Positions 4,272 to 57,570 of a stretch of 61,634 bases of DNA are shown here, piece by piece. Position 1 is the stretch's first letter; the number at the start of each line of letters is the position of its first letter. The position numbers and the translations under genes are program-made. The notes beneath the pieces were generated by a model. The model was not told the DNA's origin. It searched no databases and was given only the letters and a program-made list of their open reading frames with translations. This stretch comes from Candidatus Magasanikiibacteriota bacterium (GTDB lineage: Bacteria > Patescibacteriota > Patescibacteriia > Magasanikbacterales > GWA2-37-8): positions 1 through 61,634 of the forward strand of contig SICD01000002.1 of the NCBI GenBank assembly GCA_009694865.1, given 5' to 3'.

Positions 4272-4357
4272 GTCATTCTGAACGAAGCGGGGCGCAGTGA
4301 AGAATCTCTGTCTCAACTACCAAACGGACAGAGATCCTTCGCTGCGCTCAGGATGAC
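4272..4357. repeat. Family A inverted-repeat element
   Basis: GTCATTCTGAACGAAGC...GAAGAATCTCTGTC faces GACAGAGATCCTTCGCTGCGCTCAGGATGAC. It overlaps the last codons of rnpA. Confidence 0.7.
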
Positions 4358-6954: not shown

Positions 6955-8082
6955 ATGAGGTTCTCGTGCACCAAGGAAAACTTATCCCTCGCCCTATCAC
7001 TCACTAGTGGTTTAACCGGGAAAAATAGCAACCTACCAATTCTGGGAAGTGTTTTGCTTAAAGCCGATCAGCAAAAAGTTGATGTGATCGCGACTAATTT
7101 AGAGCTGGCTATTGTAGTAAGTGTGCGCGCCAAAATTGACTTGCCGGGCACGTTTACAGTGCCTTCTCGAACCCTCGCTGAATTTGTAGCGCTTCTCCCA
7201 AACGAAAAAGTTGATGTGGAATTAGTGGGAAACGAGCTATTAATACATTGCGCAAAATCAACCACTAAAATTAAAGGCGGACCGGCCGACGAGTTTCCTA
7301 TTATTCCGACTCTCGAGGATGGAAAAGGTTTTTCGGTTGGCAGAAACGATCTTAAATCCGCTTTGTCCCAAGTGCTACCAGCAGTGGCTAAAAACGAAAT
7401 TAGGCCCGAGTTGGCCGGAGTGTTTTTTGGTTTTACCAGCGAAGCCGATGGTGGCAACAAACTTACGTTGGCCTCAACCGACAGCTACCGCTTGGCAGAG
7501 CGGGTGGTGCCGGTGACACAAGCCACCGAGGAGTGTCGGGTGGTAGTGCCTGGTCGCACCGCTCAGGAAATTAATCACTGTTTGCTGGCGAGCGGTGACC
7601 AAGGCGACCCAACGGTTAGCTTGATTTTAACAGACAATCAAATTTCCGTGCGCCACGAAGGGGTGCAAATTATTTCTCGTTTAGTTGAAGGTAATTATCC
7701 CGACTATGCTCAAATTATTCCCACCCAATTTAAAACCACCGCGGTTATCTCGGTTGATAAATTAAACAAAGAGCTTAAGGCGGCAGGAGTTTTTACTACA
7801 AGCGGTGTTAACGCGGCCACCCTGACTTTTAAGCCAACCACCGGGGTTGTAGAAATTACCTCCGCCTCACTTCAAACTGGCGATTATCATTCCGAATTCC
7901 CGGCCGAAATTACCGGCGCCGAAGTCACTGTTTTTCTTAATCACCGCTATGTGCTGGACGGTCTTAGCGCTGCCGGATCCGATACGGTTGAAATTAAAAT
8001 TGTTGACGGTGATAGTCCGTGCCTGATAACAGTGCCGGGAAATAATAATTTTCGTTACGTGGTGATGCCGATTCGGCAATAA
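6955..8082 (+). CDS. dnaN: DNA polymerase III beta subunit (sliding clamp)
   Basis: 375 aa in the canonical position after dnaA. It has a three-domain clamp-like sequence (LASTDSYRLAE, RLVEGNYPDY, MPIR C-terminus). Confidence 0.95.
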   Translation: MRFSCTKENLSLALSLTSGLTGKNSNLPILGSVLLKADQQKVDVIATNLELAIVVSVRAKIDLPGTFTVPSRTLAEFVALLPNEKVDVELVGNELLIHCAKSTTKIKGGPADEFPIIPTLEDGKGFSVGRNDLKSALSQVLPAVAKNEIRPELAGVFFGFTSEADGGNKLTLASTDSYRLAERVVPVTQATEECRVVVPGRTAQEINHCLLASGDQGDPTVSLILTDNQISVRHEGVQIISRLVEGNYPDYAQIIPTQFKTTAVISVDKLNKELKAAGVFTTSGVNAATLTFKPTTGVVEITSASLQTGDYHSEFPAEITGAEVTVFLNHRYVLDGLSAAGSDTVEIKIVDGDSPCLITVPGNNNFRYVVMPIRQ

Positions 8083-18391: not shown

Positions 18392-18550
18392 GTCATTCCG
18401 AGCGAGGCGCCGCAGCCGACGAGGGATCTCTGCCCGTCGTTTGTCATTCCGACCGGAGCGGAGGAATCTCGCGAACCGTTAACGAGATCTCTCGACTGCG
18501 CTCGAGATGACAGGTGAGTGAGCCAGAGATTCCTCCTTCGTCGGAATGAC
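18392..18550. repeat. Composite Family A element (four arms) in the nrdA leader
   Basis: GTCATTCCGAGCGAGG..., GTCATTCCGACCGGAGCGGAGGAATCTC, ...CGAGATGAC, and GTGAGCCAGAGATTCCTCCTTCGTCGGAATGAC. Confidence 0.7.
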
Positions 18551-25326: not shown

Positions 25327-26628
25327 TTAATATCGATAATTTTCCGGTTTAAATGGTCCGTTGACTGACGTGCCCAAATAATCCGCCTGTTTTTTTGTTA
25401 GCTTGGTTAATTTAACACCGAGTTTAGGAAGATGGAGACGAGCGACTTCTTCGTCGAGTTCTTTGGGCAGTACGTACACTTTGCCCGATTCGTAGATACC
25501 TTTGTTATTCCAGATGGCGAGTTGGGCGAGCACTTGGTTAGTGAACGAGGTGCTCATAACAAAGCTGGGGTGGCCGTGGGCGTTGCCGAGGTTGACGAGG
25601 CGGCCACGGGATAGGAGAACTAGGCATTTGCCATTGGCCCACACAAATTTATCTACCTGCGGTTGAATATTTTCTTCTTTAATATTGGTTTGACTCGTGA
25701 GCCAAGCCACGTCAATTTCCGAATCAAAGTGGCCGATGTTGCACACAATGGCGCCGTCTTTCATGGCGGTCATGTGTTTGCCGGTGATAATGTCGCAACA
25801 GCCAGTGGCGGTTACAAAGATATCACCGATTTTGGCAGCTTCATCCATGGTGGTAACTTCGTATCCTTCCATGGCGGCTTGCAGGGCATTGATGGGGTCA
25901 ATTTCGGTTACGAGCACGCGGGCGCCGAAGCCGTGCATGCTTTGGGCACAGCCTTTGCCTACATCACCAAAGCCGGCGACGACCACGACCTTGCCCGCGA
26001 TCATAATATCGGTGGCACGTTTGATGCCGTCGGCGAGGGATTCGCGACAGCCGTATTTATTGTCGAATTTTGATTTGGTGACGGAGTCATTCACGTTAAT
26101 GGCCACGGTGCCGAGGGTGCCTTTTTCCATCATTTGGTACAGCCGATGCACGCCAGTGGTGGTTTCTTCGGAAACGCCTTTTATTTCTTTTAACATTTCC
26201 GGGTGTTTGTCGTGCACAAGCACGGTCAAATCGCCGCCGTCGTCGAGTAGTAAATTCGGGCCTCGTCCGTTGGAAAATTTGAGGCTTTCTTCCACACACC
26301 ACCAGTATTCTGGTTCCGTTTCGCCTTTCCAGGCAAATACCGGGATACCCGCCTCGGCCACGGCAGCCGCCGCATGGTCTTGGGTAGAGAAAATGTTACA
26401 ACTACTCCAGCGCACTTCGGCGCCTAGTTCGGTGAGGGTTTCGATGAGGACAGCCGTTTGGATGGTCATGTGGAGACAGCCGGCAATGCGGGCGTCTTTC
26501 AATGGCTTTTGACCCTTATACTTTTCCCGTAGAGACATGAGGCCGGGCATTTCTTTTTCCGCGAGAATTATTTCCTTGCGGCCCCAGGCGGCGAGGGTAG
26601 TGTCGGCGACTTTGTAATCTGAATTCAT
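25327..26628 (-). CDS. ahcY: Adenosylhomocysteinase
   Basis: 433 aa with a strongly conserved SAHH pattern ([19 protein letters not shown]-binding [20 protein letters not shown]). Confidence 0.96.
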
Positions 26629-26643
26629 AATTTATATTTAATT

Positions 26644-27303
26644 TTATTTTAAATTTCCCTTAATCTCTTTGGGGGAATTATAATATTGTAAGTAAAATTC
26701 CCTGTCTGGTACCGCCAGAGGGAGCCCCGCTTCAATAATAGTATGTAATGTTAATTGAGCAAATTTATTTGGGGAATTTATTGCTCGACCATCTCCAAAG
26801 TGTATTGCCCCAAAGCGAACAAAAAATTCATATCGTCCTTTTGCCTCATTGATTTGGGCAATGAGTCCGGAGTGGTGGGCGTTAGGAACAAGATCAATTT
26901 CTGTGCCGTATGCGCTGTCCATTTCCGGTATTGCTATTGTACTCTGTTCCTGATTTCTGTCATCCCAAGCCACACGCGCTCCCTTAATATGTTCAATTGT
27001 AAGTTTAGTATCTATTAGTAAAACAATACGGTCCTCTTCGCCAACTCCAAATGAGCGTACACCGCCATCTTCCAGATCAGATATTAAAGCCGAAATATCA
27101 GATAGAGTTCCCACCGTAAGATCGTCTTGGGTTAGGCCGGGGAGCTCATTAGAAGGGATGGCTGGATTTAGCTGGTCGCTAAAACGATCGCCAAATTTTT
27201 CTTTAAGTCTGTCCCCAAAAAGTTTTTTGGCTCGTTCAACACGAGCGCTGCGTTCCCGCTCGCGCAGAGCTTCCACGGCTGCTAAGGAATCATATTTGAT
27301 CAT
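26644..27303 (-). CDS. Hypothetical protein, downstream partner of XRE regulator 1
   Basis: 219-aa ORF, 81 nt downstream of the XRE gene on the same strand. No motif recognised. Confidence 0.55.
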   Translation of the reverse strand: MIKYDSLAAVEALRERERSARVERAKKLFGDRLKEKFGDRFSDQLNPAIPSNELPGLTQDDLTVGTLSDISALISDLEDGGVRSFGVGEEDRIVLLIDTKLTIEHIKGARVAWDDRNQEQSTIAIPEMDSAYGTEIDLVPNAHHSGLIAQINEAKGRYEFFVRFGAIHFGDGRAINSPNKFAQLTLHTIIEAGLPLAVPDREFYLQYYNSPKEIKGNLK

Positions 27304-27384
27304 AGTTATAGCCCTTTTTCGTTATACGTCTTCGCATATCTCTAACCAAACCCCTCTTTCGTAAACGTGCGTACTTGCATTCCA

Positions 27385-27642
27385 CTACCTTAAATTAACT
27401 TCCAACCGTTTACCAAACGCACCCGCCACCTTTACTAACATGGCTAGGGAAAAATTTTGATTGCCTGCTTCCATGCGGGCCACGTTGCTTTGGGTGGTAC
27501 CGAGACGCTTGGCTAAGGCGGATTGGGAAAGTTTTTTTTGTTTACGGAGGCGAAGGATGTCCCCAGCAATTTTTAATTGGAGGCTTTTGAATTTTGTAGT
27601 GACGGTATTAGAAAATTTTTTCATATACTGTGTATATATCAT
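27385..27642 (-). CDS. XRE-family HTH protein (paralog 1)
   Basis: LSQSALAKRLGTTQSNVARMEAGNQNFSLAML. About 80% identical over about 66 aa to the ORF at 28164-28403. Confidence 0.85.
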   Translation of the reverse strand: MIYTQYMKKFSNTVTTKFKSLQLKIAGDILRLRKQKKLSQSALAKRLGTTQSNVARMEAGNQNFSLAMLVKVAGAFGKRLEVNLR

Positions 27643-27684
27643 TTGCGATATATATTGTCAAGTTAATTGTCCAGTCCGTCGTTC

Positions 27685-27852
27685 TTATAAAAGACGGTCG
27701 AGGTCGCGTTTGAGCTTCGCAGGGAGCACATCTTTTGTAATAAGCCGCTCGATTTCCAAAATATTTAGCAGGCCGGGCATTTCTTTTTCGGCGAGAATTA
27801 TTTCTTTGCGGCCCCAGGCGGCGAGGGTAGTGTCGGCGACTTTGTAGCTCAT
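27685..27852 (-). pseudogene. Chimeric remnant: duplicated first 27-28 codons of ahcY fused to 27-28 unrelated codons
   Basis: Hand translation gives [28 protein letters not shown] + [27 protein letters not shown]. Nucleotides 27771-27846 are 74/76 identical to 26541-26616. Its ATG overlaps the upstream stop codon (ATGA). Confidence 0.6.
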
Positions 27853-28148
27853 AACGCAGATTTAGTAAATGATTTAGACAGATTTTTATGCTCAAGTTTT
27901 TTCCCAATTAAAAAGCCAGCAAAAGCTAAGATTGTTGCATAAAAAAATGGTAAAAGTATAATTACTCCAGGCGCAATTCCACCACGGTATCCAAGCGCCA
28001 CGACTATTTTAATCAGGAGTGCTGGAAGAAGCATCGGCCAAGCAAGAATATAGGAGGGCTCTTGTCCCGAATTTAAAAATGGAAGAATACCAACGAATAT
28101 TCCTACCATTAATCCGACGAACAAACCGATCCATTTTTTATTGATCAT
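27849..28148 (-). CDS. Small membrane protein (3 predicted TM), downstream partner of XRE regulator 2
   Basis: 99-aa hydrophobic ORF, 15 nt downstream of the XRE paralog. Confidence 0.5.
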
Positions 28149-28163
28149 ACTATTTTATTTGTG

Positions 28164-28403
28164 TTACCCAAAATTCACTTCTAATCGTTTCCCAAACGTG
28201 TACGCTAGTTTGCCCAGCATGGCGAGGGAAAAATTTTGGTTGCCGGCCTCCATGCGGGCCACGTTGCTTTGGGTGGTGCCGAGTTTTTTGGCGAGCGTTT
28301 GTTGCGACATTTTTTTACTTTTGCGAAGTCGAAGTATATCGCCAGTAATTTTTAATTGGAGACGTTTGAATTCCGTGGCAGTGGTATGAGAAACATTTTT
28401 CAT
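28164..28403 (-). CDS. XRE-family HTH protein (paralog 2)
   Basis: MSQQTLAKKLGTTQSNVARMEAGNQNFSLAML. Confidence 0.85.
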   Translation of the reverse strand: MKNVSHTTATEFKRLQLKITGDILRLRKSKKMSQQTLAKKLGTTQSNVARMEAGNQNFSLAMLGKLAYTFGKRLEVNFG

Positions 28404-28419
28404 AGAGATCTGATTGACG

Positions 28420-28521
28420 ATACCCCTCTCTGCGTCTCTCCCCTAATGTAGGAGAGAGCAATTTGATCACCGCCCAACGTTCCCCTCCCCGCTTTTAGGG
28501 GGAGGACGGAAGAGGGGGTAT
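28420..28521. repeat. Family B GC-rich element: outer stem enclosing two hairpins (intergenic copy)
   Basis: ATACCCCTCT...AGAGGGGGTAT outer stem. Inner hairpins are TCTCTCC-CCTAATGTA-GGAGAGA and CCCCTCCCC-GCTTTTA-GGGGGAGG. Confidence 0.65.
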
Positions 28522-28584
28522 TCGGCACCACGTGAATTCGTCTGCAAGCCTACCATATCATTTATGATATGTTATGTCAAATTG

Positions 28585-29607
28585 TTAGAGTGCCATTTTT
28601 TCTTTATACGTCTTCTCATACCTCTCCCCAAACTCCTCTTTCGTGAAACTGTGTTCCTGCGTGCCGTAGGTCTCAATCGCGTAACTCGCCGCTACACTGC
28701 CAATTTGGGCGCAGATTTTGAGGTGCAAGCCTTTTTCGTAGCCTACTAAAAAACCAGCCCGAAAGGCATCGCCGGCGCCGGTGGGGTCATCAACAGACTT
28801 TGGGGGGCAGGGGGCGACTTCAATTATCTCTCCGTCGCTCGTGCTAATAATGGAGCCTTTTTCTCCAAGCGTGGTGATGAGTGTTTTGGTTTCTTTTAAA
28901 ATATTTTGGGCATCCCAGCCGGTTTTATCTTGAATCAGTTTAATTTCATAGTCGTTGCCAATTAAAAACTGGCTTTGGCTAATGAGGTGTTTGAGTTCAA
29001 CGTCCGTAAACGCTGTGATTTGCTGGCCCGGGTCAAACATTACCGGAATCCCGCGGCTATGACACTCATTACTATGCTTAATCATGGCGCGTTTGTCGGT
29101 AGGAGCGATTATTGCGAGCGACACGCTCCCACCACCCCCCACGGCTGTGGCCGCCCCTCCTCGGGCAGGAGGGGACACCAGCGCCTCCCCTCCTTTCCAA
29201 GGAGGGGTAGGGGTGGTTGCCGACGCTATATCTGCCGTGTCGTTGAGTGGCCCGCTGTAAAACGCGGTTACTTGGTTGTCGTCCATATCGGTGGTGATGT
29301 AGGCGGAGGCGGAGAGTTTGGTGGCATCTTGAAAAATGTGGTCGGTGGCGATGTTAAATTTTTTAAAATGATCGAGGTAATCTTTGGCATCTCGTCCGAC
29401 GGCAGAAACGATGAGTGGGTCGGCGCCGAGCATTTTCATGGTATAGCCAATGTTGCCGGCCGTGCCGCCCCAACTTCTCTCAAGTTTATCCACCACAAAA
29501 CAGACGTTTAAGATGTGCAATTGTTCCGGCATGATGTGATTTTTAAAACTGTCCGGAAAATTCATGATGTAATCGTAGGCCAACGATCCTGATACTAAAA
29601 TGGACAT
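28585..29607 (-). CDS. PfkB-family sugar/nucleoside kinase (adenosine-kinase-like) carrying an internal Family B repeat
   Basis: PfkB signature DPTGAGDAFRAGF and N-terminal GG motif WGGTAGN. The roughly 30-aa Pro/Gly-rich insert is encoded by 29128-29219. Confidence 0.85.
   Translation of the reverse strand: MSILVSGSLAYDYIMNFPDSFKNHIMPEQLHILNVCFVVDKLERSWGGTAGNIGYTMKMLGADPLIVSAVGRDAKDYLDHFKKFNIATDHIFQDATKLSASAYITTDMDDNQVTAFYSGPLNDTADIASATTPTPPWKGGEALVSPPARGGAATAVGGGGSVSLAIIAPTDKRAMIKHSNECHSRGIPVMFDPGQQITAFTDVELKHLISQSQFLIGNDYEIKLIQDKTGWDAQNILKETKTLITTLGEKGSIISTSDGEIIEVAPCPPKSVDDPTGAGDAFRAGFLVGYEKGLHLKICAQIGSVAASYAIETYGTQEHSFTKEEFGERYEKTYKEKMAL
29128..29219. repeat. Family B element inside the pfkB-family CDS
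   Basis: CCACCACCCC...GGGGTGG outer stem with hairpins CCCCTCCT-CGGGC-AGGAGGGG and CCCCTCCTT-TCC-AAGGAGGGG. Translated as TTPTPPWKGGEALVSPPARGGAATAVGGGG. Confidence 0.65.
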
Positions 29608-33527: not shown

Positions 33528-34571
33528 TTAAACGCATTCTGTCCCGCAAAACACTCGCCCATTACTTTCATAACATTGCTCGCAACAAATAAAATGGGCG
33601 TTGCAGCTTTTAAGATTACAGTTGACGTAGTTTTCACTTGAGGCATTGCATTTGTCACAACGGCCGACGATTTCATGGGGCGTGGCGGGTGAGTTGAAGG
33701 CCATAGTAACGCGGCCGTCGAAAACGTAGAGTTTGCCTTTAAAATCTTCTTCGGGATATTTTTCCATGTAGGTAACGATGCCATTTTCCAGTTGGTACAC
33801 GTCGTTGAATCCATTTTGGAGAAGGAAGCCAGAGGCTTTTTCACAGCGCACGCCGCCGGTGCAAACCGTCACCACTGTTTTATTTTTAAGAGGCTCAAGA
33901 ATCGGTAAGATTTGAGACAAGTTGCGGAAATTTTTTAAGGGCGGCAGAATGGAATTTTGGAAAAAACCAATTTTGTGTTCGTAGTCGTTGCGCATGTCCA
34001 CAATATAAAATTCTTTTGGTTCACGAGAGATCAGACATTCCTCAATTCCCCCCTCGCAGGGGGGCACACGGGGGGTGTTGGTCGTTGGTTCGTTTGTTGT
34101 TGAGTGGTGAAGGCCGCCAACACCCCCCACGTCGCCCCCTTGCGAGGGGGGATTAGTAAAGCAGTTGTTACAGACCGTCTTGTTTGATCCATGAATCCAA
34201 CTATGTAGTTCTTCTGCTTTGATGTATTTCCCCGTTATTTGCGTTGGGTTTATATCGGCGTCGCCTAAGTGTCCGCTGACAATTTCTTTGCGTGCTTTAA
34301 TGGAGAGCCGAGGGAAAGCTTCTCCAGTACCCACACTTTTTTTGAAATCAATGTCCGCAAAGCGTAGGTCGAGCCGCGTCGCTTGAATATATTTTTCAGT
34401 ATCGTCTACCAAGCCTTCCACGGTTCCGTTAATGCCTTCTTCGGCAATAATAATACGGCCTTTAAGGTTGAGGCGTTCGCACAGCTCACGCTGAGTAGTG
34501 ACGAGTTCGGCTGGATTATTGATGTGGGTGTATTTGTAGTAGAGGAGAATTTGGAACATATTATGTGTCAT
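33528..34571 (-). CDS. trhO: Rhodanese-domain tRNA uridine(34) hydroxylase-like protein (UPF0176/YceA) carrying an internal Family B repeat
   Basis: N-terminus ILLYYKY...LKGRIIIAEEGINGTVEG, rhodanese active-site loop CTGGVRCEKAS, C-terminal Cys cluster. The insert is encoded by 34047-34151. Confidence 0.85.
   Translation of the reverse strand: MTHNMFQILLYYKYTHINNPAELVTTQRELCERLNLKGRIIIAEEGINGTVEGLVDDTEKYIQATRLDLRFADIDFKKSVGTGEAFPRLSIKARKEIVSGHLGDADINPTQITGKYIKAEELHSWIHGSNKTVCNNCFTNPPSQGGDVGGVGGLHHSTTNEPTTNTPRVPPCEGGIEECLISREPKEFYIVDMRNDYEHKIGFFQNSILPPLKNFRNLSQILPILEPLKNKTVVTVCTGGVRCEKASGFLLQNGFNDVYQLENGIVTYMEKYPEEDFKGKLYVFDGRVTMAFNSPATPHEIVGRCDKCNASSENYVNCNLKSCNAHFICCEQCYESNGRVFCGTECV
34047..34151. 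repeat. Family B element inside the trhO CDS (105 nt)
   Basis: CCCCCCT-CGC-AGGGGGG, a 12-bp stem GGGGGGTGTTGG/CCAACACCCCCC, and CCCCCT-TGCG-AGGGGG. Translated as NPPSQGGDVGGVGGLHHSTTNEPTTNTPRVPPCEGG. Confidence 0.65.
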
Positions 34572-34588: not shown

Positions 34589-34738
34589 TCCCCTCCTTAC
34601 CAAGGAGGGGTTTACGGGGTGGTTAGCCGTCCTCTGCGCAAGCGTGACTGGCCAACGTTGGCTCACGGCTGGTCAAACGATGGCAAACCACCCCCGCCCC
34701 GATGCGAATCGGGTCGCCCCTCCTTGGTAAGGAGGGGA
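34589..34738. repeat. Family B element, large intergenic copy
   Basis: Terminal hairpins CCCCTCCTT-ACC-AAGGAGGGG and CCCCTCCTT-GGT-AAGGAGGGG flank the long-range stem GGGGTGGTT...AACCACCCC. A Family A arm (GTCATTGTGAGGAGCGGCGG) abuts at 34568. Confidence 0.65.
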
Positions 34739-40625: not shown

Positions 40626-40744
40626 ACTGCTTGCTTATGTAGTTAAATTTTGTTATTGTTAGTCAATAGAATTGCTCGTATCATAGCAGAAATTGATTAG
40701 AATTACCAGATGTTCACATTATTACAGTGTTGGCTCTCAATCAA

Positions 40745-40799
40745 GGGGATTGCCACGCCTGCCTGCCGGTAGGCAGGTCGCTACGCTCCTCGCAATGAC
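40745..40799. repeat. Family A arm upstream of and overlapping the glycosyltransferase start
   Basis: The reverse complement reads GTCATTGCGAGGAGCGTAGCGACCTGCCTACCGGCAGGCAGGCGTGGCAATCCCC. Confidence 0.6.
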
Positions 40800-42114
40800 A
40801 CTTGTGCAGCCAAAAATTCTCATCCTCCACGACTATTTTTTGTATAAAGGCGGCGGGGAGCGGCTGGTGATTAGCCTTGCCAAAAATTTGGGAGCAGATG
40901 TAGCCACGGCGTTTATTGCCAAGGACGCGTTTGACCCGCGTGAGCACGGAATAAAGACGATTGAACTGTATAAAGAAAAACCCTGGTCGCGAGTGCCGGG
41001 GTTTAGGTATTTGCAGGTGCAGTTGTCGTTTTTGTTTAAGACGAAATTTGTACGGAATTATGATGTAGTGATTTATAGTGGGGATTGTTTGGTGGCGGTG
41101 ATAAGGGCGTTGGGGTGGCGTGGATTGTGGCGAACCAGCGAGACCTCTCCCCAACCCTCCCCCCTGCGGTGGGGAGGGGGGCCAATCACACCTCCTCCAC
41201 CGCAGGGGAGGAGGCAGGAGGAGGATTCACATCATCTACGCAACATCGCCTATATGCATTCACCGCCCAGGCATTTGTATGATTTGTACAAGGAACGACT
41301 GGCGGCCTATCCTTGGTGGAAGAAAATTATTTTTGTGCCGTTTGTTTGGTTTAACCGCTGGCGATTTGAGTGGTTGTGTCGGAAATTGGATACAATTGTA
41401 ACTAATTCGGAGAATACGCGTAAAAGAATACAGCAGTATTTGGGTTTAGACTCAGTGGTGGTGTATCCACCGTGCGATACGTTGGTGTTGAAGAATGGGA
41501 GCGAGACCTCTCCCCAACCCTCCCCCCTGCGGTGGGGAGGGGGGCCAATCACACCTCCTCCACCGCAGGGGAGGAGGCAGGAGGAGGACTCGTCACCGGT
41601 CCACCCTTATTTTTTCTCCTGGGCACGATTGTATGATGTTAAGCGCGTGCCAATGATTGTGGAGGCCTTTATTAAAATGCCGGATAAACAGTTGATAGTG
41701 GCATCGGGTGGCCCGGATTTAGAAAAAATCCAAAAAATGGCGGCAGGACATTCGAATATAAAAATTTTAGGTTGGATTAATGACGAGCAGTTGATTGAGT
41801 ATTTAGGGAAATGTTTGGCAACGATTTATATCCCGATGCAGGAAGATTTTGGTATGACGGCGGTGGAGAGTATGCAAGCGGGGAAGCCGGTGATTGGGGT
41901 GGCGGAGGGCGGGCTCCTTGAAATTATTGAAGATAATAAAAATGGATTGATGTTAGAATCAAATTTTACGGTGGATGATTTGTGCGCGGCGGTGCAGTCA
42001 CTTACGCCGGATCGAGCCAGTGTAATGGAGAGTGTGTGCGAAGAAACCGCAAAGAAATTTTCCGAAAAAAGTTTTATTGAGGGGATGAAGAAAGTGATTG
42101 AAGGTGTTTGTTGA
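40795..42114 (+). CDS. GT4-family glycosyltransferase carrying two identical internal Family B repeats
   Basis: Start trimmed to MTLVQPKILILHDYF. C-terminal GT1/GT4 pattern EDFGMTAVESMQAGKPVIG. Inserts lie at 41137-41225 and 41500-41588. Confidence 0.85.
   Translation: MTLVQPKILILHDYFLYKGGGERLVISLAKNLGADVATAFIAKDAFDPREHGIKTIELYKEKPWSRVPGFRYLQVQLSFLFKTKFVRNYDVVIYSGDCLVAVIRALGWRGLWRTSETSPQPSPLRWGGGPITPPPPQGRRQEEDSHHLRNIAYMHSPPRHLYDLYKERLAAYPWWKKIIFVPFVWFNRWRFEWLCRKLDTIVTNSENTRKRIQQYLGLDSVVVYPPCDTLVLKNGSETSPQPSPLRWGGGPITPPPPQGRRQEEDSSPVHPYFFSWARLYDVKRVPMIVEAFIKMPDKQLIVASGGPDLEKIQKMAAGHSNIKILGWINDEQLIEYLGKCLATIYIPMQEDFGMTAVESMQAGKPVIGVAEGGLLEIIEDNKNGLMLESNFTVDDLCAAVQSLTPDRASVMESVCEETAKKFSEKSFIEGMKKVIEGVC
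41137..41225. repeat. Family B element, copy 1 inside the glycosyltransferase CDS
   Basis: 89/89 nt identical to 41500-41588. Hairpins are CCCTCCCC-CCTGCGGT-GGGGAGGG and CCTCCTCC-ACCGCAGG-GGAGGAGG. Confidence 0.85.
41500..41588. repeat. Family B element, copy 2 inside the glycosyltransferase CDS
   Basis: Identical to copy 1, offset by 363 nt (same reading frame). Both encode SETSPQPSPLRWGGGPITPPPPQGRRQEEDS. Confidence 0.85.
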
Positions 42115-42251
42115 TACTTTTTGGTAGCAAAAAGTATCCAAAAAACCATTGGGGCGCCATAACTCCCGCCAAAGGCGGGCAGGCGCCTCTATCTCGGTGG
42201 CTCCTTGCCCCGTCGAATGACGGGGGAACAAGGCCGCCCCCAAACCCCCAG
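42113..42251 (+). repeat. Family C structured repeat, copy 1
   Basis: GATACTTTTTGGTAGCAAAAAGTATC hairpin + CAAAAAACCATTGGGGCGCC...variable...AACAAGGCCGCCCCCAAACCCCCAG. Overlaps the glycosyltransferase stop codon. Confidence 0.7.
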
Positions 42252-43625: not shown

Positions 43626-43745
43626 GATACTTTTTTGATGGCAAAAAAGTATCCAAAAAACCATTGGGGGCGGCTAACTCGCTTCAGGAATATCTTTTCA
43701 CCGCGTGTTGAGTTAGCTCAAACAAGGCCGCCCCCAAACCCCCAG
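43626..43745 (+). repeat. Family C structured repeat, copy 2
   Basis: GATACTTTTTTGATGGCAAAAAAGTATC + CAAAAAACCATTGGGGGCGGCTAACTC...GAGTTAGCTCAAACAAGGCCGCCCCCAAACCCCCAG. Confidence 0.7.
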
Positions 43746-44357: not shown

Positions 44358-44750
44358 TTATTGATGTCGGGGGTGGGCATCTGGGTACAGGAGTGGCTCC
44401 TCTTTTTCTCCAATTGTGTCTACCCCCGGGTAAGTATCGTTTTCTCCAAGTAAATCATCACGCCGTGCACGCATCGCGCTGGTGCGCTCATTTTCTTGTG
44501 CTCGTTTATTTAATTCACGCAGCTCCTCCCGTTCAGCCAGTTCAGTCCGTAGTTGTTGTATAGCCACTTTAAAATAAGCATTGTTTCGTTTTTCAACATA
44601 ATTTGGTTCGCCGCGTTTACCATAAAATTTTTCCAGCGCTTTTCCGACGGAAAATTGTAACGTGTAACCACTGTCAACCCACGTTAAGGCTTCAGCAACT
44701 ATTTTGTTGATTATGACGGTTTCTAAGCCGTTGCGTTTTGGTAGTGTCAT
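44358..44750 (-). CDS. Hypothetical protein
   Basis: 130-aa ORF overlapping the upstream gene by 4 nt. No motif recognised. Confidence 0.5.
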   Translation of the reverse strand: MTLPKRNGLETVIINKIVAEALTWVDSGYTLQFSVGKALEKFYGKRGEPNYVEKRNNAYFKVAIQQLRTELAEREELRELNKRAQENERTSAMRARRDDLLGENDTYPGVDTIGEKEEPLLYPDAHPRHQ

Positions 44751-45580
44751 AGTGGGCGGGCGTTTATATAATGGCGCCGTTCTTTTTTGTTTAATTTTTC
44801 AATCGCGTATCGCAACATCGTGCGGGGCATGGTTGGATGATGTTGATTGAGAAATTTTTTCAGTAGGGGTGTATTGCCATACGCCAGCATTTCGCGTTTG
44901 CCAACTTCACGGAGCATCCAGCCGGTGGCTTTGTGAATTAAATCATGTTTGTCGTTAAGAAGCAAGGTGGCGAGGTGAATGGTTTCTTTGAAACGATTGG
45001 CGCGGATGAAGGCGAAGGTGGCGACGATGGCGATGCGGCGTTCCCAGAGGTTTGGGGAGCGGGCGAGGGTGGTGAGAAGAGCCAGCCGTGACTGAACCCC
45101 CCTCTCTGTCTCCCCCCTTATAGGGGGGAGAGGAATACGTTTGCCCTCCCCTATAAGGGGAGGGACGGAGGGTGGGGTTTTCGTTTCGCGTTCATCGTTC
45201 ACAAGATATTCCCCCACAATCTGCGAGGCGGATGCGTCCACTAAATCCCAATTATTAACGCGTTTGGCATTTTTGAGGTAGAAAGAAAATATTTTTTTCT
45301 TTTGAGATCCAGTACCTGTTTGAAATTGATGTACCAAGATGACGAGCGCGATGAAACGTCCCTCATGAATTTTTGATTTGAGTAGTTTTTGGATGTCGGG
45401 GAGGGGTAGAGTATAAAAATTTTTAGCAATTTTTCTTCGTTCGGGCACGGTGAGACCTAAAAATTTGTCGCCTTCGCCGTATTCGCCATGGCCGGTTTTG
45501 TAAAATCCACTGTATATTTTGGCTTTAGCGGGGTTGGCGTGGGAGTGGAGGATTTTTTTGAGTTGGGATAATGTCGGCAT
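44747..45580 (-). CDS. DNA alkylation repair (AlkD-like HEAT-repeat) protein carrying an internal Family B repeat
   Basis: Start trimmed out of a Family A arm to MPTLSQLKK. Motif VNNWDLVDASASQIVGEYL. The insert is encoded by 45095-45179. Confidence 0.8.
   Translation of the reverse strand: MPTLSQLKKILHSHANPAKAKIYSGFYKTGHGEYGEGDKFLGLTVPERRKIAKNFYTLPLPDIQKLLKSKIHEGRFIALVILVHQFQTGTGSQKKKIFSFYLKNAKRVNNWDLVDASASQIVGEYLVNDERETKTPPSVPPLIGEGKRIPLPPIRGETERGVQSRLALLTTLARSPNLWERRIAIVATFAFIRANRFKETIHLATLLLNDKHDLIHKATGWMLREVGKREMLAYGNTPLLKKFLNQHHPTMPRTMLRYAIEKLNKKERRHYINARPL
45095..45179. repeat. Family B element inside the alkD-like CDS
   Basis: Hairpins TCTCCCCCC-TTATA-GGGGGGAGA and CCCTCCCC-TATAA-GGGGAGGG within an AACCCC...GGGGTT outer stem. 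Translated as TPPSVPPLIGEGKRIPLPPIRGETERG. Confidence 0.65.
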
Positions 45581-45587
45581 ACATATA

Positions 45588-45623
45588 GTGAGCCAGAGAT
45601 TCCTCCTGCGACGTCGGAATGAC
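45588..45623. repeat. Family A arm
   Basis: GTGAGCCAGAGATTCCTCCTGCGACGTCGGAATGAC, nearly identical to the arm at 18517-18550. Confidence 0.65.
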
Positions 45624-45628
45624 AATGT

Positions 45629-47667: not shown

Positions 47668-47804
47668 GATGATCCTCCTTTCTCCCGCGCCAGTGCGGGA
47701 GTGGCAGAACCATAGCAGAGAGAGAGAGTTGTAAAGGCCTGTGGGGTGGATAAAAAAACAGAAATTCGTGGAGAATTTCTATAAGTGTTTTTGATTGTGT
47801 GATT

Positions 47805-47899
47805 GATACTTTTTGGTGGCAGAAAGTATCGCAAAAACCACTGGGTGGCCAGAACTCGTCGCTTCACTCCTCAAACAGCTGGCCCCCCAGACCCCCAAG
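47805..47899 (+). repeat. Family C structured repeat, copy 3 (diverged)
   Basis: GATACTTTTTGGTGGCAGAAAGTATC + GCAAAAACCACTGGGTGGCCAG...CTGGCCCCCCAGACCCCCAAG. Confidence 0.6.
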
Positions 47900-53217: not shown

Positions 53218-53437
53218 CAAATTTCTAAGTACCTAATATCTAATTTCTAATAAAATGTCAAAGGCACGACTGTCATTCCGACCGAGCGTCACAGCGAGTG
53301 GAGGAATCCCTTGACCCCTGCGACTCAATGGTCAAGCGATTTCTCGACTTCGTCCCGAGCGACTCTGGACTACGCTCGAAATGACAACTGGACATTGGGA
53401 ATTATATTAGAAATTAGGAATTAGAATTTAGAAATTT
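53218..53437. repeat. Roughly 220-bp composite palindrome (AT-rich outer arms enclosing a Family A element) between ribA and ribD
   Basis: AAATTTCTAA...CTAATTTCTAATA...ATGTC faces GACAT...TATTAGAAATTAG...TTAGAAATTT. The core at 53272-53385 is GTCATTCCGACCGAGCG...CGCTCGAAATGAC. Confidence 0.65.
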
Positions 53438-57162: not shown

Positions 57163-57210
57163 GCGGAAAAAATAAGATTCGAACTCACGGTACCTTGCGG
57201 TACGACAGTT
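57163..57210 (-). pseudogene. Decayed 3' half of a second tRNA-Ser(UGA)-like gene
   Basis: AGATTCGAACTCACGGTACCTTGCGGTACGACAGTTTT is identical to the intact gene, but the acceptor 3' strand GAGGGTG is replaced by AAAAATA, which disrupts the T stem. Confidence 0.6.
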
Positions 57211-57267
57211 TTTCCCCCTCGCGGGGGATCACCCGAGCTGTGGCTCTGGCGAGAGGGTGACAAGACT
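57207..57267. repeat. 61-nt direct repeat, copy 1 (anticodon-loop flanks plus 48-nt GC-rich Family-B-like insert)
   Basis: AGTTTTTCCCCCTCGCGGGGGATCACCCGAGCTGTGGCTCTGGCGAGAGGGTGACAAGACT, 60/61 identical to 57458-57518. Confidence 0.8.
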
Positions 57268-57278
57268 TACCACTACAG

Positions 57279-57363
57279 CGGAGAGGGTGAGATTCGAACT
57301 CACGGTACCTTGCGGTACGACAGTTTTCAAGACTGTTGGTTTCAACCGCTCACCCACCTCTCC
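57279..57363 (-). tRNA. tRNA-Ser (anticodon UGA), intact
   Basis: GGAGAGGTGGGTGAGCGGTTGAAACC..., anticodon arm ACAGT-CTTGAAA-ACTGT, long variable arm CGTACCGCAAGGTACCG, T-arm GTGAGTTCGAATCTCAC. Confidence 0.88.
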
Positions 57364-57457
57364 GCTCTCGTGATAAATTTTAATTTTCTACGCTGAAATT
57401 TTTTATTCTTCTTTTTTAATTTACTTTCAATAAAGTAGACTACTCCCATACGTGTAA

Positions 57458-57518
57458 AGTTTTTCCCCCTCGCGGGGGATCACCCGAGCTGCGGCTCTGG
57501 CGAGAGGGTGACAAGACT
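57458..57518. repeat. 61-nt direct repeat, copy 2
   Basis: Same sequence as 57207-57267 with one C/T difference. Confidence 0.8.
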
Positions 57519-57570
57519 GTTGGTTTAAACCGCTCACCCACCTCTCCGCTCTCGCGATAAATTTAATTTT
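57512..57570 (-). pseudogene. 5' half of the interrupted tRNA-Ser(UGA)-like gene plus duplicated upstream flank
   Basis: CAAGACTGTTGGTTTAAACCGCTCACCCACCTCTCC + GCTCTCGCGATAAATTTAATTTT, compared with the intact ...TTTCAACCGC...GCTCTCGTGATAAATTTTAATTTT. Confidence 0.6.

Follow-up and report, generated by a model that had tools for sequence, protein, structure and literature searches.

Family B, a probably mobile nested-palindromic repeat with in-frame copies in enzyme genes of a Patescibacteria contig

The repeat described here, family B, is present in seven copies on contig SICD01000002.1 (complete, positions 1 to 61,634, forward strand; hereafter the window) of a Candidatus Magasanikiibacteriota bacterium (assembly GCA_009694865.1), and it can be set beside several described systems. 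The attC sites of integrons are imperfect palindromes that are recognised as folded single strands and flank small, promoter-less open reading frames (ORFs), and in yeast mitochondrial DNA, mobile G+C-rich hairpin clusters can sit in coding sequence. The replicating form of a REPIN, a doublet of repetitive extragenic palindromic (REP) sequences, is an inverted pair of short G+C-rich hairpin units with a conserved flank, folding into a long hairpin (PMC3116915). Such doublets are mobilised by RAYT transposases. [quoted passage not shown] Finally, Rickettsia palindromic elements (RPEs) are small palindromic repeats (about 100–150 bp) located between genes and, with unusual frequency, in frame within unrelated housekeeping genes, the added peptide being compatible with the protein fold (PMC10969869).

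Family B is probably a small, non-autonomous, nested-palindromic mobile repeat of the MITE/REPIN kind, with a behaviour like that of RPEs; between the two origins offered by an earlier inspection of the letters alone (the sequence-only reading), a MITE/REP-like element and a small-RNA module, the evidence favours the former. As in RPEs, copies are found in frame in unrelated genes (five of the seven, in four enzyme genes), and the insert in a PfkB gene is predicted to form a disordered loop. However, RPE hosts are obligate intracellular Alphaproteobacteria and the host of family B belongs to the Patescibacteria, which makes the family an analogue by behaviour and not a member; its hairpin arms are strictly pyrimidine then purine, its basic module (M, see below) occurs across phyla and in phages, whereas RPEs have been described in Rickettsia, and it is recurrently tied to a DUF559 nuclease gene. 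With MITEs it has in common the small size, the inverted-repeat ends, the dispersal, and the in-frame fusions, but neither a target-site duplication nor a related DDE-transposase insertion sequence was seen, and the ends are themselves hairpins, resulting in a nested palindrome. The likeness to REP/REPIN sequences lies in a stem sequence that is kept while the loops vary, again with no target duplication seen; in contrast to those species-specific, extragenic repeats, the M block is found across phyla and is tolerated within genes, the ORFs scanned in the window revealed no RAYT (Y1/HUH) gene, and the gene recurrently located between M ends encodes a PD-(D/E)xK nuclease rather than a Y1 transposase. 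The yeast mitochondrial clusters differ in their organellar, eukaryotic setting and are unrelated in sequence.

Architecture, model search, and covariation

The seven copies reported by the sequence-only reading were all verified at their coordinates, together spanning 17 kb: W1 (28420–28521) and W2 (34589–34738) between genes, and W3 (29128–29219), W4 (34047–34151), W5 (45095–45179), W6 (41137–41228), and W7 (41500–41591) within genes, none of them being assigned to a strand. Their sizes range from 85 to 150 nt, within the limit of about 300 bp for MITEs, with no coding capacity of their own. The building unit is a module of ~40 nt, M, formed by a hairpin whose 5' arm consists of pyrimidines only and whose 3' arm consists of purines only, followed after 1–6 nt by a G-rich half-stem (GGGGTGGT). 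The canonical M hairpin reads CCCCTCCTT-NNN-AAGGAGGGG, and this hairpin plus GGGGTGGT makes up the core block. Each element consists of two inverted M modules. In type I (W1, W3, W5, W6, and W7) these stand tail to tail, with a pyrimidine stem, two hairpins, and a purine stem (ACCACCCC-hairpin-spacer-hairpin-GGGGTGGT), and in type II (W2 and W4) head to head, with the stems inside (hairpin-GGGGTGGT...ACCACCCC-hairpin). The right half of W3 matches the left end of W2, and its left half matches the right end of W2; therefore, the two types are circular permutations of each other.

Each copy is also a single nested palindrome, of which “two hairpins plus an outer stem” and one long hairpin are alternative folds. 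The sequence-only reading is corrected on both points. Dyad symmetry extends over the whole element, with inverted M modules at both ends, so the terminal inverted repeats of MITEs are present, as is the inverted doublet of hairpin units forming a long hairpin that defines REPINs. The textbook type I copy is W3, with the layout ACCACCCC - (CCCCTCCT..AGGAGGGG) - spacer - (CCCCTCCTT-TCC-AAGGAGGGG) - GGGGTGGT, whereas W6 represents a “CCCCAA” subtype; in W1, an outer C-rich/G-rich stem surrounds two pyrimidine-purine hairpins. The left end of W2 is an exact core block and its right end the inverted block, and this copy fits the 26-base pattern used for the metagenome scan described below. W4 is a divergent type II copy of 105 nt (CCCCCCT-CGC-AGGGGGG, GGGGGGTGTTGG ... 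CCAACACCCCCC, CCCCCT-TGCG-AGGGGG), assigned to the family by architecture only, with a weak score (15 bits, E 0.28) in the model search.

All seven copies fold 3 to 10 standard deviations better than dinucleotide shuffles, with z values of −2.9 for W1, −8.5 for W4, and −9.9 for W2. A search for perfect hairpins over the window gave 18 overlapping calls corresponding to 16 distinct hairpins with a C/T-only 5' arm and a G/A-only 3' arm, 14 of them in the seven copies and the other two near 57.2 kb, in comparison with 0–1 (~0.1 on average) in each of 20 Markov-2 shuffles. Only two purine-first perfect hairpins were found in the window. The pyrimidine-first orientation was considered as a strand signal and rejected, as such a hairpin reads pyrimidine-first on both strands; it is therefore a property of the element and not a strand bias.

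A covariance model (R1) was built from 14 type I elements of unrelated metagenome contigs plus W3, and the whole window was searched with filters off. Besides W3 itself (29129–29219, 63 bits by construction), R1 recovered W5 (45097–45177, 49.5 bits, E 6e-9), W6 and W7 (41141–41227 and 41504–41590, 31 and 30 bits, E about 1e-4), and W1 (28422–28518, 25.5 bits, E 1e-3), and in W2 (34589–34738) the two end hairpins were matched, with 23 bits. The best unrelated site reached 15.6 bits (E 0.25). Significant R1 matches in the window are thus confined to five of the seven copies. Over 1.22 Mb from 80 related genomes the same model found ~8 elements, as against 5 in the 61.6 kb of the window, so that this genome, or at least this region, is unusually rich in them; by a rough estimate, the chance of seven copies clustering within 17 kb is below 1%.

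The claim of a common architecture in place of a strict consensus, with pairing kept by compensatory change, was borne out by A5, an alignment of the elements from the window and its relatives in which both strands of each element were included and fitted to the model. In A5, 94.9% of cells are paired (77.7% in shuffles and 61–71% in slid controls), and changes on both sides are seen in 23 of 25 pairs (14.7 ± 1.8 in shuffles), values reached by none of 500 shuffles in either case. Nearly all changes are from C-G to U-A, so the arms remain pyrimidine-only and purine-only. As a caveat, palindromic sequence is expected to covary under selection on RNA, on single-stranded DNA, and on the duplex alike. 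A strand test based on G·T versus C·A intermediates was discarded as circular, since the strand with the better score is the one chosen by the model.

Two candidate relatives of family B, 61-nt repeats that are 98% identical, are located at 57207–57267 and 57458–57518, with similar hairpins (TCCCCC-TCGC-GGGGGA, then a stem TCACCC...GGGTGA) and no R1 match. In the same region (57163–57570), two tRNA-Ser half-copies flank an intact tRNA-Ser(UGA) gene (57278–57363, minus strand), each half-copy abutting a 61-nt repeat placed exactly in the anticodon loop. This looks like a rearranged or att-like duplication, or like an element inserted in a tRNA pseudogene.

In-frame insertions in enzyme genes

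The five intragenic copies are found in four enzyme genes: W3 in a gene for a PfkB-family adenosine/ribokinase (28585..29607, minus strand; 340 aa, PF00294), W4 in a gene for a TrhO/UPF0176 rhodanese-domain protein (33528..34571, minus strand), W5 in an AlkD-like DNA alkylation repair gene (44747..45625, minus strand), and W6 and W7, in the same strand and frame and 363 nt apart, in a GT4 glycosyltransferase gene (40693..42114, plus strand). A bias of insert length towards multiples of three had been raised as a possibility, and it holds for every intragenic insert; none contains an in-frame stop, and the conserved domains downstream remain in frame in all five cases. The observation that five of the seven copies lie inside ORFs that stay open was therefore correct, and it becomes stronger with the finding of homologues that lack the inserts.

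Indeed, the PfkB protein has 340 aa, in comparison with 310–315 aa in nearly all homologues, and the extra 30 residues fall exactly at W3, where the insert amounts to 90 nt or 30 codons and keeps the frame. The insert is also missing from the closest relatives, including the sister genome L080, and the alignment of the window PfkB to the Mycobacterium tuberculosis adenosine kinase in the PDB splits at residues 130/155, exactly at the insert. A GT4 homologue (locus L029) shows gaps of 40 residues at the W6 site and 32 residues at the W7 site, three AlkD-like homologues (L066, L055, and L070) share a 33-residue gap at the W5 site, and W4 lies inside a 57-residue segment missing from the TrhO structure 9j5o. 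The inserts are thus missing from homologues of each of the four host proteins, which makes the intragenic copies lineage-specific insertions. This, together with the existence of intergenic copies, agrees with the proposal that protein-coding constraint is not what keeps the fold. The nearest relatives of the window PfkB come from metagenome-assembled genomes labelled Candidatus Magasanikbacteria or Patescibacteria, the best matches among GTDB representatives being 73% (full length) and 83% (partial gene) identical.

The peptides encoded by the inserts comprise 30–35 residues, are rich in Pro, Gly, Ser, and Arg, and have PPxxxGG-type motifs in common. One stretch spanning an insert reads ...TTPTPPWKGGEALV..., and W6 translates to SETSPQPSPLRWGGGPITPPPPQGRRQEED. 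No further protein was retrieved with the PfkB insert peptide as a query. In the AlphaFold model of PfkB, the insert (residues 133–159) is devoid of secondary structure, with pLDDT values (predicted local distance difference test) below 50, as against 82–95 for the fold downstream of it. Lengths in multiples of three and the lack of in-frame stops argue for read-through translation, and the intragenic copies would thus almost certainly be translated as disordered surface loops rich in Pro, Gly, Ser, and Arg. As with RPEs, a palindromic repeat is found in frame in unrelated housekeeping genes and is compatible with their folds; the extragenic location typical of REP/REPIN sequences is not shared, five of the seven copies being in coding sequence.

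The possibility that the elements are adapted to be stop-free in all six frames was rejected, as composition-matched shuffles do equally well (P about 0.2). Intragenic copies have 4–5 of 6 frames open and intergenic copies 1 of 6, as a consequence of base composition and of selection on insertions.

A second palindromic family, with the ends GTCATTCCGAGCG...CGCTCGGRATGAC, was also detected in the window (4272–4357, 18392–18511, 20823, 21498, and 53272–53385), with 11 matches versus 1.2 expected. In two relatives (L001/L004 and L003/L005, near 10400), this second family (GTCATTCCGAGCG...) is integrated in frame at the same PfkB site as W3. Different palindromic elements at a single site indicate that this loop is a permissive or a preferred one.

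Distribution, DUF559 cassettes, and surroundings

When the exact 26-base pattern of the core block (hairpin plus GGGGTGGT) was used to scan JGI (Joint Genome Institute) metagenomes, at least 120 stretches were recovered, with a flank G+C content from 28 to 64%. A scan with the exact hairpin CCCCTCCTT-NNN-AAGGAGGGG yielded 40 stretches of viral contigs, several of them with 3–6 matches and nearly all with the same outer stem, ACC(A/T)CCCC...GGGG(A/T)GGT. Two of these contigs correspond to Mu-like phages, and in the phage contigs the hairpins are found between genes; a BLAST search with W2 against annotated phage genomes gave no match. The core block is therefore not lineage-specific and is spread across phyla, which, like the link to DUF559 cassettes presented below, goes beyond what had been read from the window. 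Solo M, single enclosed hairpins, type I, and type II were all present in the metagenomes, most occurrences being assigned to solo M by a rough classification in which degenerate partners are overlooked, and ~15 type I elements in unrelated contigs had stems near-identical to those of W3. The metagenome copies are mostly intergenic and without orientation preference, although some M copies lie in frame there too, in a MetRS-like ORF (L182) and in ORFs of two other loci (L208 and L169). Flank bias was limited to three bases per side, approximately A-Y-T before the block and T-R-A after it (123 metagenome copies). Across organisms, the stems are constant in sequence while loops, junctions, and spacers vary, a pattern that points to a DNA repeat or recognition site and not to a functional RNA.

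Comparison with Rfam, under both gathering and permissive thresholds, gave only sub-threshold look-alikes of miRNA hairpins for the elements and nothing at M in 20 metagenome loci. Two roles for the M hairpin were tried and discarded: that of an intrinsic terminator was ruled out, as no hairpin with a T-tail was found, and that of a ribosome-binding site failed because ORF starts within 40 nt downstream occur at a frequency of 0.30, versus 0.26 at random positions, the sole excess of ORF starts after M coming from a GTG inside the motif itself. Our literature searches found no description of this element.

In three Baltic Sea contigs (L163, at 2853–2880 and 7293–7310, L180, and L205), the core block is followed within 1–10 nt by GTGCGTAAGGTGAG, a sequence (GTGCG) that resembles the 5' end of group II introns, and in L138 a true group II intron match was found 620 nt from the block. 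Hairpin-targeting introns may use M elements as landing sites.

Inverted M modules separated by 350–600 nt enclose the coding sequence of a DUF559 protein (PF04480, E 4e-31), of a Vsr-like PD-(D/E)xK nuclease family. M-bracketed DUF559 ORFs were found in ten loci (L165, L145, L201, L210, L207, L088, L176, L244, L245, and L247), and no DUF559 gene was found in 1.28 Mb of control loci or in the window. The ORF starts 2–50 nt after M (about 90 nt in L145), and where the downstream module is present, its last residues are encoded by the inverted M. The protein of L176 ends in ...TTPTPPWKGGD, a peptide that recurs in the PfkB insert with an identical coding sequence of 33 nt; this 33-nt end, AACCACCCCTACCCCTCCTTGGAAAGGAGGGGA, is common to W3 and to DUF559 cassettes in different genomic contexts. 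M-encoded tails were also found in DUF559 homologues from databases (P0121, P0122, P0124, P0221, and P0224), and M-encoded N-terminal extensions in two more (P0172 and P0179). Close cassettes (75–89% identical) with the same end appear in different contexts, such as downstream of dnaK and immediately upstream of dnaJ (L244), or between ABC-transporter genes (L247 and L176). In addition, at L220 (2444–3125), inverted core blocks bracket a 131-aa ORF without a Pfam match that is MazF/PemK toxin-like by eye, so the cargo between the ends is not always DUF559.

In our literature search, no paper was found that connects DUF559 with repeats of this type. A homing endonuclease of a group I intron is among the members of the Vsr/DUF559 group, in the PD-(D/E)xK superfamily (PMC3424549), and the DUF559 cassettes are like such endonucleases (e.g., I-Bth0305I) in being small, nuclease-only, and dispersed over varied contexts; they differ from them in having no intron, in being bounded by inverted hairpin modules, and in that the nuclease is a predicted one. 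A wider proposal, which we put forward only tentatively and regard as rather doubtful, is that M marks an undescribed cross-phylum mobile element whose autonomous form would be a ~0.45-kb cassette carrying nothing but DUF559 between inverted hairpin ends, and whose ORF-less derivatives would have spread in bacteria and phages, and in frame in housekeeping genes of the Candidate Phyla Radiation (CPR). If this were true, it would be a nuclease-driven element, neither a DDE, an HUH, nor a recombinase transposon, and its in-frame copies would add disordered loops to the proteins of CPR organisms with otherwise minimal genomes.

With respect to age, W6 and W7 share 99% identity over 92 nt, which implies recent copying, whereas W1 is orthologous in the sister genome L080 (PfkB 83% identical), where the outer stem and the hairpins are kept and the spacer is entirely replaced; hence, some copies are old and their stems have been maintained. 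The family was detected in related Patescibacteria (L016, L020, L032, L037, L045, L056, L062, L078, L080, and L083). As expected of MITEs, the seven copies of the window are dispersed and differ in presence among related genomes: homologues and relatives lack the inserts, and relatives have copies elsewhere.

W1 is placed between the convergent 3' ends of the PfkB gene and a small ORF (28141–28389, plus strand) without a Pfam match and helix-turn-helix-like by eye. Beside it, at 26536–28671, there is a patch of duplicated gene fragments that is unusual for a compact CPR genome: 26540–26616 matches 27770–27846 at 97%, 27386–27625 matches 28165–28404 at 76%, and the 3' end of the PfkB gene is duplicated at 27315–27383; in L080 (565–2800), a 2.2-kb segment lies between two copies of the PfkB 3' end. 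Just past the PfkB stop and near the small ORF, at ~28552–28575, a perfect palindrome, ATATCATTTATGATAT, also kept in L080, resembles an operator.

W2 is located between two minus-strand genes. The gene content of the window is that of common housekeeping functions, with genes for the RNase P protein, UppS, NUDIX, and MsrA, riboflavin genes, and more, and only tRNAs match Rfam 15 at gathering score. A third repeat, an A/T-rich hairpin (TTGATACTTTTTGGTAGCAAAAAGTATCCAAAAAACCATTGGGG...), occurs at 42111–42165, 43626–43680, and 47803–47857, at most ~90 nt downstream of three gene ends, and possibly represents the real terminators of this organism. From 8000 to 56000, the plus strand shows a strong and sustained positive GC skew (cumulative skew from 0 to 3), and genes downstream of ~14 kb are mostly on the minus strand.

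Alternative explanations and implications

A functional structured RNA, that is, a small RNA, a stability or terminator module, or a hairpin sequestering a Shine–Dalgarno sequence, with its fold kept at the RNA level, would account for the strong covariation and the very stable folds, for the maintenance of W1, its stems conserved and its spacer free, between convergent genes at an orthologous intergenic position, for the intergenic hairpins of the phage contigs, and for a 3' arm that is a perfect Shine–Dalgarno sequence with a 5' arm that is its complement. We consider it unlikely nevertheless, and the small-RNA module of the sequence-only reading is likewise not supported: five of the seven copies are in conserved enzyme genes, flanks are unrelated beyond three bases, and the combination of invariant stems with variable loops and junctions is opposite to what functional RNAs usually show; there is no Rfam match and no T-tract terminator signature, and gene starts downstream of M are not enriched (0.30 versus 0.26). 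The covariation itself does not separate the two readings, palindromic DNA covarying at whatever level selection acts. About as improbable is a cassette system similar to that of integron attC sites, in which M would be a recombinase site, small ORFs such as DUF559 and the MazF-like one would move, and types I and II would be the whole and the split site. No integrase was found near any copy examined, neither was an integron integrase found in the window or in the gene-called cassette loci nor a cassette array; sites are in housekeeping genes, most metagenome occurrences are solo M (by the crude classifier), attC core motifs in M would be hypothetical, and the sequence of M is conserved, not only its structure. 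All of this weighs more than the circular permutation of both types, the DUF559 and MazF-like ORFs bracketed by half-sites or whole sites, and the motif similar to the 5' end of group II introns (GTGCG) that abuts M in L163, L180, and L205, class C group II introns being known to target hairpins and attC sites.

Two further explanations deal with the intragenic copies, and both seem highly improbable. Their removal as introns or inteins, or through translational bypassing, whether ahead of expression or in the course of it, would leave the proteins unaltered, and stable G+C-rich hairpins in genes do recall bypassing elements and the GC clusters of yeast mitochondria; however, all five inserts keep the frame and are stop-free, removed inserts would face no such constraint, and five such lengths would arise by chance with a probability of about (1/3)^5, or about 1/243. 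No intron family was matched, and the 30–35-residue Pro/Gly-rich peptides have no intein motifs. Conversely, the inserts could be a protein-level module, a Pro/Gly-rich linker selected for itself and duplicated among proteins, as the common PPxxxGG-type motifs and the TTPTPPWKGG end of some DUF559 proteins might suggest. This is hard to accept in view of the intergenic copies (W1, W2, and most metagenome copies), the conservation of base pairing and DNA sequence rather than peptide, the predicted disorder of the insert, and the lack of any other protein found with its peptide. Least credible of all is a chance effect of low-complexity G/C runs with no real family, named beforehand as the result that would undo the proposal and already refuted by shuffles, model search, and covariation. 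Although the arms are indeed low-complexity C/T and G/A runs, and stop-free frames are no more frequent than in composition-matched shuffles, 16 hairpins were observed against ~0.1 in shuffles, R1 singles out only these loci, identical blocks of 26–33 nt are found in more than 120 unrelated contigs, and covariation exceeds all 500 shuffles and all slid controls.

The reading of family B as a non-autonomous mobile repeat thus stands ahead of these. In such a case, the elements would spread as DNA, probably via single-stranded hairpin or cruciform intermediates and without target duplication; selection would then purge the insertions that break frame or fold, so that in-frame copies in permissive loops remain. 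The parent or driver may be the ~0.45-kb cassette with inverted M ends around a DUF559 gene, the short copies of the window then being its ORF-less derivatives. Several points weigh against this mobile origin. Neither a transposition event nor a conserved target was observed, W6 and W7 have no flanking sequence in common, and no direct repeat flanks either of them, their ends not being fixed to the base. A scan of 37 ORFs in the window revealed no gene for a transposase, a RAYT, an integrase, or DUF559, and no parent insertion sequence with a transposase was detected there or, at other loci, between paired ends. To our knowledge, DUF559 is not a known transposase, and the link could mean instead that a nuclease gene targets palindromes or has captured them. 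Moreover, translation of the inserts is itself inferred. The stem sequence is kept across very different G+C contents, which is unusual for REP/MITE sequences and could reflect a host function, the purine arm being a perfect Shine–Dalgarno sequence whose pyrimidine counterpart mimics the anti-Shine–Dalgarno.

As a mobile repeat, family B would have several consequences. Elements of this kind break assemblies and inflate or split gene calls and families of “hypothetical proteins”, and a model such as R1 can flag them. The association with M provides a concrete candidate for the role of DUF559 proteins and for the way in which mini-palindromes move. In-gene selfish palindromes have so far been documented mainly for Rickettsia, and in the small and tightly packed genomes of CPR/Patescibacteria, palindromic selfish DNA in core enzymes would represent both a route to innovation in protein loops and a burden on genome maintenance.

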